From the NCBI GenBank assembly GCA_036679645.1, contig JAZDCY010000018.1, positions 1 through 37,515 on the forward strand: a stretch of DNA of 37,515 bases, in the 5' to 3' direction. The notes under the pieces were generated by a model. That model saw nothing but the letters and a program-made list of their open reading frames with translations, searched no databases and had not been told where the DNA came from. This document shows positions 11,671 through 16,387 of this stretch, in pieces (positions within the stretch are counted from its first letter, which is position 1; each line of letters starts with the position of its first letter). Position numbers and translations under genes: made by a program. This stretch comes from Gemmatimonadota bacterium. Its GTDB lineage: Bacteria; Gemmatimonadota; Gemmatimonadetes; Gemmatimonadales; GWC2-71-9.

Positions 11671-11758
11671 GAGTCCGCCGCTAAAGCGGCGACTCGGCTG
11701 ATGTCACTAAAGTGACGCGCGCTTCCCCCACGTCGCTTTAGCGACACCTGCCGAGTCG
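11671..11758. repeat. REP-like hairpin cluster, copy A
   Basis: CGCCGC-TAAA-GCGGCG, GTCAC-TAAA-GTGAC, GTCGC-TTTA-GCGAC; homologous to 13431-13597. Confidence 0.75.
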
Positions 11759-11852
11759 TGTTTTTGGTCGTGACAAGACCGCGCCTCGGTCACGATGTGC
11801 GCCTATTCGGGATCGGGCTGCCGTGAAGATGTGCTCTTGTTTGGTCGTACGG

Positions 11853-12308
11853 CTAGTTCTCCCTCTCCAGCAGGATGTTCTCTGGCTTGATGTCACGATG
11901 TAGCACGTCGTGGCTGTGTGCATACGAGAGCGCGTCAGCGACCTCGCGAGCGGTCTGCACCGCCTCCTCGACGGGCAGTTGCTTCTCGCGGTCGAGCCTG
12001 TCGCGCAGCGACTCGCCTTCCACGTACGGCATGACGTAGAACAGGAAGCCGTCGGCTTCGCCTGAATCGAGCAGCGGCAGAATATGCGGGTGTGTGAGGC
12101 GGGCGGTGATCTTGATCTCGCGCAGGAGCCGCTCGGGGCCGAGCGCGTGGGCGAGTTCGGGCTTCAACACCTTGAGCGCGACGTGGCGCTCGTGGCGGAT
12201 GTCCTCGGCGAGGTAGACGGTGGCCATGCCGCCGCTGCCCAACTCACGCTGGACGGCGTAGCGGTCCGCGAGGGCGGATTCGAGGCGGTCGAGTTGTTCG
12301 TCGGCCAA
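11853..12308 (-). pseudogene. Truncated Hanks-type Ser/Thr protein kinase (N-lobe to catalytic loop only)
   Basis: LGSGGMATVY, VALKVL, HPHIL, HRDIKPENILL, then a stop four codons later; no DFG/APE downstream. Confidence 0.88.
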
Positions 12309-12621
12309 GGGGTACTCCGGTTGGCGACCGGACTAAGATGGGGCGCGAGGGCCGGGGTGGCCAGTTAGTGGGCGCGGGAACGATTGGCGATCGACGATTT
12401 GCGATTTGCGATTGTGGCCGAGGAGCACGGGCTCCGGGCCCGCGTTCGCGCGTTGAAGGCGCGCGCTCGACGCCTCAACGGCGGCAAAGTGGACCCCAAT
12501 GCGCGTTTCTGGTTGGTAGGTGCCAGGCACCGGATGGTATCCTACGGGGCGGTTCGGGCAGTGGGGTCGTTTGCTTCGCGTTCGCCTCTCTAGGCCTACC
12601 ATGCGTGCCACCGTTTAGGGT

Positions 12622-12705
12622 GCTGGCGTGGCGGAACTGGTAGACGCAACAAGCTGACACCTTGTTGAGCGAAAGCTCGTGCCGGTTCGAATCCGGCCGC
12701 CAGCA
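12622..12705 (+). tRNA. Class II (long variable arm) tRNA with tRNA-Leu-type body and GAC (Val) anticodon
   Basis: Acceptor GCTGGCG/CGCCAGC, D arm GCGGAACTGGTAGACGC, anticodon stem ACAAG/CTTGT with loop CT-GAC-AC, variable arm GAGC-GAAA-GCTC, T arm GCCGG-TTCGAAT-CCGGC, discriminator A; CCA not encoded. Confidence 0.93.
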
Positions 12706-12929
12706 CCCACCGCACGATTGACGGGATGTGGCACTGCGCCGTATCTTAGGATCATCAAGGTGTCAGCTTGCGCAGGTGATTTCCGCTGCGTCAGACAGAG
12801 ACCGGGAGGCTCATGGCCTTCCGGTCTCGTGCGTTCCCTGGCGTCTGTTGCTGTACGTCATTGCTCACCGTCCCCGCGCCAACGCTATACCTCGGTATGG
12901 CCGACTCCGCAAGCACTCGCAGACCCCCC

Positions 12930-12975: not shown

Positions 12976-13080
12976 TCGGTCGAGTGGGTCGGTGGCGCGC
13001 TCCGCGAGCTGCGCGAGCTGCCTGCCCCGGTGCAGGACGTGATGGGCTACGTGATCTACCTCAAGCAATACGGTGAGGAC
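12976..13080 (+). pseudogene. Relic of a RelE/ParE-superfamily (Gp49/HigB-like) toxin N-terminus
   Basis: SVEWVGGALRELRELPAPVQDVMGYVIYLKQYGE resembles the Gp49-type toxin start; in-frame TGA at 12973; remainder of the toxin absent. Confidence 0.65.
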
Positions 13081-13083
13081 ATC

Positions 13084-13419
13084 ATGAGGCGCAGTCGTGT
13101 TTCCAAAGTCACCGCTTCGAGCGGCAACGTTTTTCGCGACATCGGTTTCGCCGATGCCGACCGGCGTGCCGCCAAGGCCGAACTCGTCCGCACGATTGCG
13201 CACCTGATCGGCCAACGTGGCGCTACGCAGCAGGCCGCCGCCGAGTTGCTGGGGATCGACCAGCCAAAGGTCTCGAACCTGTTACGCGGGCGGCTCGCCG
13301 GGTTCTCGACCGAGCGGCTGTTGGGGTTTCTGACCGCGCTCGGCCGCGACGTGCAGATCGTTGTGCGGGCCACACCGCGCGCCCGTCGCCGCGGTCGCGT
13401 GCGTGTCGTGAGTCGGTAG
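13084..13419 (+). CDS. XRE-family HTH antitoxin (HigA2/HTH_37-like)
   Basis: SSGNVFRDIGF...TQQAAAELLGIDQPKVSNLLRGRLAGFSTERLLGFLTALGRDVQIVV; GAGGA RBS before ATG 13084. Confidence 0.88.
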   Translation: MRRSRVSKVTASSGNVFRDIGFADADRRAAKAELVRTIAHLIGQRGATQQAAAELLGIDQPKVSNLLRGRLAGFSTERLLGFLTALGRDVQIVVRATPRARRRGRVRVVSR

Positions 13420-13430
13420 CCGCTGCGAGT

Positions 13431-13597
13431 TCGCCGCTAAAGCGGCGATTGCCGAGTCATCGCTCGTCTGCGACTCGCGATGCTCGGCCTCGCGCCGCTC
13501 GCAAGCTCGCGGATACGATCGGCTGATGTCACTGAAGTGACCCTTGCTGCCCCCACGCCGCTTTAGCGACATCTGCCGAGCCGCGACTTTAGTCGCG
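13431..13597. repeat. REP-like hairpin cluster, copy B
   Basis: TCGCCGC-TAAA-GCGGCGA, GTCAC-TGAA-GTGAC, GCCGC-TTTA-GCGAC, CGCGAC-TTTA-GTCGCG; shares TCGGCTGATGTCACT.AAGTGAC...CCCCCACG.CGCTTTAGCGACA.CTGCCGAG with copy A. Confidence 0.75.
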
Positions 13598-13623
13598 ATA
13601 AACGACGCGAGATACGGTCACGG

Positions 13624-16013: not shown

Positions 16014-16085
16014 ACCCAGCTCGCGACGGACGGCGTAGCGGTCCGCGAGGGCGGCTTTCAGGCAGTCGAGCTGTTCGTCGGCCAA
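16014..16085 (-). pseudogene. 5' relic (24 codons) of a second Ser/Thr kinase gene
   Basis: TTG-ADEQLDCLKAALADRYAVRRELG; 16028-16119 matches 12251-12342 at 85/92 nt by hand; homology ends at the Gly-rich loop, next to the MTase stop. Confidence 0.85.
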
Positions 16086-16154
16086 GGGGTAGTCCGGTTG
16101 GCGACGGGACTAAGATGGGGCGTGTAGGGCGGGAGGGCCAGCTACGGGACCTGG

Positions 16155-16320
16155 ACGATTTGCGATTGCCGATTGGCGATTGGCGATTGAGTCTAAAGGG
16201 TGGGTTTATCGCCGAGAGGTCTTGGCCGTGTTCGAGGAGACGGTCTTGTAGCCGTTGAGGACTGAATCCGGAAGACATGGCGGCTCCCTCAGCAATCGCA
16301 AATCTGCAATCGCCGATCGT
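16155..16320. repeat. Inverted arrays of GCGATT(G/T) heptamer repeats flanking a tiny gene relic; the same heptamers occur at 12381-12415
   Basis: GATTTGCGATTGCCGATTGGCGATTGGCGATTG at about 16158-16190 and CAATCGCAAATCTGCAATCGCCGATCG at about 16293-16319. Confidence 0.7.
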
Positions 16321-16387
16321 TCTACCGCCACGTATGCTCAAAATCACGCACCGGGCACATCACCCGCCCGCTGCGCAAAGCAAACAA

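Follow-up and report, generated by a model that had tools for sequence, protein, structure and literature searches.

In the type I system hok/Sok, a toxic RNA is kept inactive by folding back on itself, and an antisense RNA made from a stronger promoter attacks it by its 5' end. The nev-tRNAs of nematodes join a Leu-type, long-armed body to a non-Leu anticodon and are charged with leucine in vitro; we know of no antisense partner for them. In type VIII toxin-antitoxin systems, both partners are RNAs and the two genes are neighbors; two loci of this type have been validated, SdsR-RyeA and CreTA (PMC10767807). Bacterial tRNAs that combine a body and an anticodon of different identities have also been described. 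The allo-tRNAs and irregular G-1 tRNAs of Mukai et al. have a long variable arm and diverse noncognate anticodons; missense suppression by allo-tRNAs kills Escherichia coli, and their genes were reported near toxin-antitoxin genes (PMC5389517). The tRNA-ProX/ProRSx pair of Streptomyces and Kitasatospora includes a tRNA with mismatched body and anticodon, which causes mistranslation in E. coli and is toxic to it (PMC10404621, PMC11415595). Expressed in E. coli, mistranslating allo-tRNAs and tRNA-ProX kill the cells or slow their growth (PMC5389517, PMC10404621). The word “antisense” is absent from the main texts of PMC10404621 and PMC11415595, and no antisense partner was found in the accessible part of PMC5389517, whose supplement has no match to “antisense,” “complementary,” “Gemmatimonad,” or “Planctomyc.”

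The locus described here lies in a 37,515-nucleotide stretch of Gemmatimonadota DNA, which was analyzed as a whole and is called the window below. A sequence-only reading of the window had treated one of its tRNA genes as a lone oddity and overlooked the cassette around it, which includes an antisense element that co-evolves with the tRNA and has a promoter of its own. With this dedicated element and its promoter, the gene is better read as one half of a controlled system, likely a toxin-antitoxin, than as an odd tRNA. The parts of the cassette are as follows.

12535 to 12543, + strand: predicted weak promoter of the tRNA, proposed from the sequence, with an extended -10 (TG-n-TATCCT) and no good -35.
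12549 to 12621, + strand: conserved 5' leader of about 73 nt, seen in fold and alignment and predicted to slow maturation.
12622 to 12705, + strand: tRNA with a tRNA-Leu body (class II, 7/5) and a GAC anticodon at 12656 to 12658, the predicted toxin; CCA is not encoded.
12706 to 12713, + strand: 3' trailer CCC-ACCGC, complement of the 5' end of the leader (fold, alignment).
12718 to 12747, + strand: predicted sigma-70-type promoter of the small RNA, with -35 TTGACG, an 18-bp spacer, and -10 TATCTT (promoter scan).
12756 to 12770, + strand: 5' seed of the predicted small RNA, an exact 15-nt complement of tRNA positions 28 to 42 (12650 to 12664) that holds the codon GUC (sequence, inverted repeat).
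12771 to 12794, + strand: small-RNA hairpin with additional complementarity to the D arm and the acceptor 5' strand (tRNA positions of about 2 to 25; cofold).
12798 to 12828, + strand: 12-bp GC-rich, terminator-like hairpin that ends the predicted small RNA (fold).

The tRNA gene was recognized by ARAGORN as tRNA-Val(GAC) at 12621-12709 and by Rfam model RF00005 at 12622-12705, with 57.5 bits and zero nonstandard pairs. Watson-Crick pairing is complete in the acceptor stem (7/7), the anticodon stem (5/5), the variable stem (GAGC/GCTC, 4/4), and the T stem (5/5), which bears out the claim of the sequence-only reading that the stems are fully paired and the gene is undecayed. The Leu-type D arm, A15:U48 pair, GAGC/GCTC variable arm, and A73 named in that reading are all present in the window sequence, where the gene bears A14-A15, G18G19, U20-A20a, U48, and A73. 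The cloverleaf was not the minimum in single-sequence folding and was recovered by the alignment consensus.

The anticodon loop, CU-GAC-AC at 12654-12660, had been judged unlikely to be a single sequencing error, and the assembled contigs agree. In sequencing run X1, probably the source, a single contig covered 12300-13100 at a depth of 99 with 0 other letters. A contig from run X2, which belongs to a different study, spanned 12317-12884 with 39 other letters and 16 gaps; among the differences listed for it, the anticodon loop and 12756-12770 were unchanged. Other letters at 12653-12661 were confined to the depths of short, partly fitting contigs, which in our reading represent other tRNA genes. 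Only short pieces were obtained from runs X3 and X5.

We compared the tRNA with identity elements described for the two synthetases. According to PMC9976931, E. coli LeuRS requires A73, A15-U48, G18G19, A20a, and D/T-loop contacts and ignores the anticodon, and ValRS uses A35, C36, and A73 as major elements and G20, G45, G3-C70, and U4-A69 as minor ones. Every listed E. coli Leu determinant is present in the tRNA, including the G18:U55, G19-C56, and U54:A58 contacts. The major Val determinants A35, C36, and A73 are present as well; the minor Val elements G20, G3-C70, and U4-A69 are missing, and the tRNA instead has U20, U3-A70, G4-C69, and a long variable arm. When the anticodon loop was masked, the nearest canonical host tRNA was Leu(CAG) with a score of 23.5, compared with -0.5 for the best Val and 1.0 for the best Ser tRNA; this ranking comes from pairwise alignment rather than from tRNAscan-SE isotype models. 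Some valylation of the window copy via A35, C36, and A73 may nevertheless occur.

The genome does hold a separate canonical tRNA-Val(GAC), a point that the sequence-only reading had raised as a question, together with Val(CAC), Val(TAC), five Leu, and three Ala tRNAs. Given these full canonical Val, Ala, and Leu sets, the tRNA at 12622-12705 is therefore an extra. Reassignment of the GUC codon was considered and is disfavored because the canonical Val(GAC) gene is present. There are four class Ia synthetase genes and one alaS; no extra class Ia synthetase or AlaRS gene was found in the genome. The proposal that this is a Leu-charged, mistranslating tRNA is thus far well supported by its identity elements and by the family described below, and the alternative offered beside it, a class II tRNA-Val, is unlikely, given the canonical Val tRNAs of the genome and the spread of anticodons in the family.

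Four further genes with a Leu body occur in the same genome, with GAC, CGC, GGC, and GGC anticodons, making five cassettes in total. Searching 15 of the 64 parts of the GTDB contigs by pattern gave at least 121 loci (about 520 stretches estimated), 49 of them in Gemmatimonadota. In a sample of 401 genomes of the phylum, some of them incomplete, 23 had between 1 and 6 matches with C or U at position 36, and 12 had matches with a Pro or Arg anticodon. We pooled 86 distinct Gemmatimonadota copies, Phe anticodons lying outside both search patterns. Excluded from this set were four duplicate loci, L300 (identical to L009), L287 (a gene with a 6-nt loop), L301, and seven genes with Pro anticodons; neither L301 nor the seven Pro-anticodon genes had an antisense match. 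The L005 copy derives from the unpublished genome G016, and no claim depends on it.

Conserved relatives were a stated check of the sequence-only reading; with the loop masked, 86/86 copies are closest to a host tRNA-Leu. The anticodons correspond to Ala (42 copies), Val (27), Gly (5), Arg (5), Glu (4), Asp (2), and Thr (1), and most of them read the most used codons of the host (GCG, rank 1; GCC, rank 4; GTG, rank 7; GTC, rank 11). A14A15 is found in 86/86 copies, A37 in 85/86, A73 in 84/86, U48 in 83/86, C36 in 80/86, and C33 in 21/86, with atypical bases at 32/33 in some copies. G3:U70 occurs in 0/86 copies and so is absent from all 42 with an Ala anticodon. Compensatory changes were seen at 15 of 26 pairs of the cloverleaf stems. 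Some of the genes that annotation by anticodon labels tRNA-Val or tRNA-Ala in these genomes fall outside the ordinary tRNAs.

Each of the five Leu-bodied copies in the genome has its own version of the antisense element and prefers its own partner. Across the 62 family copies with sufficient flank, the binding energy between anticodon arm and downstream region was -26.6 kcal/mol for a copy's own region, -14.1 kcal/mol for those of other copies, and -15.7 kcal/mol for those of other copies that share its anticodon. A copy's own region ranked first in 53/62 and among the top three in 61/62, and 0 of 100,000 permutations did as well, a count that overstates significance because the copies are kin. 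Kinship inflates such statistics, yet it is insufficient to account for a private partner for each copy. Positions 34 to 38 are paired in 60/60 registers, and the stem positions tolerate mismatches.

The match is preceded by a TTG..A...T promoter in 59/60 family copies, compared with 113 of 5,000 random windows, and in 45/60 the -10 box ends 6 to 7 nt ahead of the base that pairs with position 40. This fixed spacing suggests that the seed would be the 5' end of the small RNA. A promoter-anchored test, which avoids picking the register by the match, gave the same picture: of 85 copies examined, 3 lacked such a promoter, and 78 of the other 82 had the complement of their own positions 34 to 38 within 22 nt of the -10 box (shuffled null, mean of 7.8 and maximum of 20). 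G-U combinations outnumber A-C ones in the transcribed sense (47 versus 19), an excess that points to RNA pairing. On a tree from which arm and seed were left out, the anticodon changes about 40 times (minimum, 11) across 77 copies, every time together with a matching seed; the rows of this tree had been chosen beforehand for a match, and many branches are poorly supported.

As a control, we scored 49 host tRNA genes. The five family copies scored 12 to 14 of 14; among the 44 others, 42 scored 9 or less, one Ala gene scored 11, and one gene of a His-type cassette (see below) scored 13. Damaged copies were found as well. In an orphan unit at about 2785 to 2950 of contig C47 of genome G000, the tRNA has lost its 5' two-thirds, leaving the T arm and the acceptor 3' strand; the promoter, the antisense to a GGC anticodon, and the terminator are all intact. 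Among the full-length copies, L009 has the weakest match of the 86, and its variable and T arms are damaged. The small RNA had no match near a gathering score in Rfam.

The 5' end of the leader (GCGGT) pairs with the 3' trailer, and the last bases of the leader lengthen the acceptor stem in the predicted fold; leaders of the family additionally hold partial complements of the D arm. Among 39 sequences, two leader-trailer columns are G-C in 35/39 and C-G in 36/39, one pair switches between G-C (23) and C-G (12), and two more pairs are weak. Leader duplex energies for own versus other partners were -9.8 versus -8.5 and -32.6 versus -28.4 kcal/mol, differences inflated by kinship. Small leader ORFs that end in the D loop were also considered; they probably reflect no more than fixed spacing and were set aside. 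The promoter scan of the window copy found 3 sites, including 12718-12747, compared with 0.3 in shuffled sequences. In 77 copies, the mean promoter score was 5.8 of 12 upstream of the leader and 8.1 for the small RNA, and the small-RNA promoter had the higher score in 67/77. The terminator-like hairpin is more stable than -15 kcal/mol in 77/78 family copies; in the window copy its U tract is weak, and the terminator scan gave it no score.

The window small RNA and its tRNA are predicted to cofold with -19.9 kcal/mol, net of the separate folds. Among 50 host genes, the canonical Val(GAC) was outside the ten best targets of the small RNA (weaker than -4.7). Mean predicted binding over 78 copies was -22.8 kcal/mol to the own partner and -6.9 kcal/mol to other partners. 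The antisense is thus specific for its cognate tRNA in silico. In read-through transcripts, the predicted folds no longer contain the acceptor, D, and anticodon stems, and in precursors that bear the leader the same stems are predicted to be weaker (for the acceptor, 0.87 to 0.48). The seed is only partly unpaired in the predicted folds (about 0.3 to 0.6).

We next consider the surroundings of the cassette. No protein family was a constant neighbor across the family loci examined, no linked protein partner was found at them, and no Cas family appeared among the neighbors scanned. Toxin-antitoxin, nuclease, or mobile (transposase) genes were among the nearest genes at 17/50 and 2/23 family loci, and the same classes lay near 6/20 ordinary tRNA genes of this genome, with own-genome loci given more neighbors and E-value limits of 1e-4 and 1e-5. 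Because ordinary tRNA genes are similar in this respect, there is no enrichment, and the context lends no support. No match was found in the plasmid and phage collections.

Other features of the window were recorded around the locus. Direct repeats of 130 nt (86%) at 12238-12367 and 16015-16144, both of which are 5' ends of Ser/Thr kinase genes, enclose the cassette together with a HigA-like HTH_37 gene (13030-13419) and a low-GC module (51 to 58% GC) with DUF7687/DUF7690, XRE, and Dam-type methylase genes. Kinase genes also lie beside L039, L051, L076, L079, L285, L286, and L288. Palindromic repeats of two families (12 and 14 BLAST hits in the genome) lie at 11671-11776 and 13427-13601 and at 12379-12414, 16154-16189, and 16293-16329. 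A tie between cassettes and the palindromic repeat at 13427-13601 was rejected, as just 2/6 cassettes lie within 1 kb of one.

The same logic appears on another tRNA body. At C28:57346-57418 of genome G000 (L146:7220-7420), on the minus strand, a tRNA with G-1 and C73 in its acceptor, which we take to be His-type identity, bears a Gly GCC anticodon; behind it lie TTGCTA-17-TACCTT, a 17-nt complement of the anticodon arm, and a terminator. A strict pattern recovered 0 relatives of this His-type cassette in metagenome contigs. Other layouts occur in other lineages. In Patescibacteria, Leu-bodied Gly(ACC) tRNAs at L103 and L120, and less perfectly at L021, face a convergent promoter on the opposite strand, from which an antisense partner is predicted to run toward a shared terminator. 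In five loci of Planctomycetota (L044, L065, L111, L112, and L141) and in four genes on viral contigs (L174, L184 [twice], and L230), the partner is a downstream RNA predicted to pair with the variable arm, and the codon lies mostly in a hairpin loop. Such cases are a minority: z was below -4 for 7/67 non-Gemmatimonadota and 4/62 viral genes, and most Leu-like bodies in both groups have no antisense within 200 nt. Within the phylum, seven Leu-bodied Pro-anticodon genes and one Gly gene also have none within 200 nt.

Several further tRNA-like genes were noted in the course of these searches. The L067 locus carries a tandem pair of small-RNA units. Pro (UGG/CGG) anticodons on Leu-like bodies occur at L148 to L151, L155, L157, and L159, and another Leu-like body with a Pro anticodon, with a very long variable arm, lies at about 56340-56443 of C28 in G000 (L146, minus strand). 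At C7:130360-130443 of G000 (minus strand) lies a copy like tRNA-Leu(CAA) that lacks an antisense match and whose anticodon loop has 6 or 8 nt. Leu-bodied Gly(GCC) genes at L045, L054, L096, and L101 (Clostridia, Bacteroidota) have an acceptor stem of just 5 pairs. A long arm and a Leu-like D arm with an Asn GUU anticodon, mostly with G73, are seen at L029, L038, L050, and L063 and in 35/124 viral matches; these tRNAs, from Alphaproteobacteria, Planctomycetota, and viral contigs, had no antisense in sight and are possibly faithful class II-like tRNA-Asn.

An intact Leu-type body with a non-Leu anticodon, an adjacent complement, and co-variation of the two across dozens of copies are shown by these comparisons. 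Our preferred explanation, which we hold with confidence somewhat above even, is that the cassette is an RNA-only toxin-antitoxin system in which a Leu-inserting missense tRNA is silenced by an anti-anticodon small RNA. The tRNA precursor would be made from a weak promoter and mature slowly. LeuRS would charge the GAC tRNA with leucine, and the charged tRNA would insert Leu at GUC/GUU codons, with other copies acting at Ala, Gly, Glu, Asp, Arg, or Thr codons. The small RNA, of about 80 nt and more strongly transcribed, would bind the anticodon loop via its 5' end and unzip the anticodon, D, and acceptor arms, so that the tRNA is blocked or destroyed; read-through transcripts would inactivate themselves in cis by the same pairing. 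Should the small RNA be the shorter-lived of the two, mistranslation would set in and growth would cease once the cassette is lost or host transcription is shut off. Such a growth stop would retain the cassette in the genome and could abort phage infection.

The cassette has two adjacent predicted RNA units with separate predicted promoters, no linked protein, and putative roles for each unit. The patchy, multicopy distribution, the orphan antisense unit, and the other layouts with the same RNA pairing speak for a toxin-antitoxin system. Against it stand the mostly mild Val-to-Leu or Ala-to-Leu changes and C33 (21/86), which should weaken decoding; both suit tolerated mistranslation too. The missing enrichment of defense genes, the lack of plasmid or phage matches, the only partly unpaired seed, the possible valylation of the window copy, and the Leu-like bodies with no antisense within 200 nt also count against it. 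More broadly, we consider the evidence evenly balanced on whether the cassettes are all-RNA modules of a kind not described before, serving addiction or abortive infection, in which a missense-tRNA toxin on an anticodon-blind body (Leu, and His once) is paired with a small-RNA antitoxin that reads the anticodon arm, new specificities arise via paired changes, and the arrangement recurs in several layouts in Gemmatimonadota, Planctomycetota, Patescibacteria, and viral contigs.

The main rival keeps the switch and changes its purpose: mistranslation would be regulated and released under stress to the benefit of the cell, through proteome variety or stress priming. That most changes are conservative (Val or Ala to Leu in 69/86), that 21/86 copies have C33, that defense genes are not enriched near cassettes, and that tRNA-ProN raised carbenicillin tolerance in E. 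coli, according to PMC10404621, would all fit such a role. We nevertheless consider it unlikely, since the cassettes are patchy and multicopy, each copy has a private antisense, anticodons switch frequently, an orphan antisense unit exists, and inspection by eye of the upstream regions showed no clear shared regulator box. Still less probable is that the silenced, tRNA-shaped RNA acts without decoding, for example by titrating LeuRS or EF-Tu or by stalling ribosomes. Non-random anticodons (C36 in 80/86 and A37 in 85/86, mostly reading the host's most used codons) and an antisense that is strictest at positions 34 to 38 argue for decoding, although some copies have atypical 32/33 bases and certain irregular tRNAs are charged and unused in translation, as reported in PMC5389517.

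Three other explanations are far less probable. The tRNA could be an unusual, faithful class II tRNA-Val charged by ValRS, as A35, C36, and A73 would allow. We think this very improbable: the tRNA is without G20, G3-C70, and U4-A69, canonical Val tRNAs exist in the genome, 59/86 relatives carry other anticodons on the same body (the Ala type without G3:U70), a faithful spare would need no silencer, and the genome has no extra synthetase gene beyond four class Ia genes and one alaS. A DNA-level origin has a similarly small probability in our estimate. Here, the two parts would be a selfish, tRNA-derived repeat or an inverted repeat matched by template switching, with no RNA function; in Gemmatimonadota they do form an inverted repeat, an arrangement that could explain their joint change. 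However, the G-U excess in one sense, the fixed distance between promoter and seed, and the compensatory cloverleaf changes speak against it. Moreover, the partner in Patescibacteria is a direct repeat behind a promoter on the opposite strand, and the codon in Planctomycetota is located in a hairpin loop. We assign the lowest probability to reversed roles, in which the small RNA would play the toxin by sequestering a host tRNA in the manner of CreT, with the tRNA-like RNA serving as decoy antitoxin. The small RNA shows a Val codon, and tRNA-sequestering RNA toxins exist (PMC8501985), but the small RNA is predicted to prefer its own tRNA (-20.1 kcal/mol) over the canonical Val(GAC) (weaker than -4.7), and an orphan small-RNA unit persists in the genome.

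Returning to the toxin-antitoxin explanation, we asked how the cassette relates to what has been described. The conserved two-RNA cassette is real, and an earlier description was not found in the literature searched. In that literature, mostly open papers searched by word match, so that an earlier mention is possible, neither a tRNA with an antisense RNA dedicated to it nor a Gemmatimonadota family of Leu-bodied tRNAs was found; the accessible parts of PMC7609411 and PMC8450103 showed nothing resembling the Leu-bodied family. If the explanation is true, a tRNA gene has its own antisense repressor, and the adaptor of the genetic code serves as a toxin. It would also give a testable answer to how bacteria tolerate lethal missense tRNAs such as allo-tRNAs, and the cassette of about 300 bp would offer natural, mutually specific tRNA/small-RNA pairs for codon switching in synthetic biology.

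The cassette would share with hok/Sok a fold-back toxic RNA and a small antisense that is made from a stronger promoter and attacks by its 5' end. Hok, however, is a protein encoded by an mRNA; the window cassette encodes none, and its antisense lies downstream on the same strand. The nev-tRNAs, which are eukaryotic, resemble it in joining a Leu-type, long-armed body to a non-Leu anticodon. The allo-tRNAs described in PMC5389517 have 8/4 or 9/3 folds and Ser/Ala identity, in contrast to the canonical 7/5 Leu bodies of the window family; in place of an 8/4 or 9/3 branch, a tRNA-Sec-like D arm, and G73/U73, the window tRNA has 7/5, a Leu D arm, and A73. Like tRNA-ProX, the tRNAs of the window family join a body and an anticodon that belong to different amino acids, are patchily distributed, and in some copies have an atypical base 33. 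They differ in that tRNA-ProX has a Pro body and a dedicated synthetase, whereas the window cassette has a Leu body and a linked small RNA and no linked synthetase.

In type VIII systems, both partners are RNAs from neighboring genes; the cassette has two adjacent predicted RNA units with putative roles and no linked protein. In SdsR-RyeA, the two RNAs are encoded on opposite strands; the window cassette has both units on the same strand, and its putative toxin is itself a tRNA. In CreTA, CRISPR-Cas represses an RNA that sequesters a tRNA, whereas the candidate antitoxin of the window pairs directly with the anticodon arm; the small RNA is the complement of a tRNA, and no Cas or other protein gene is linked to it. 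If toxicity is shown, the cassette would be filed under type VIII, with a mechanism unlike those of both validated members.
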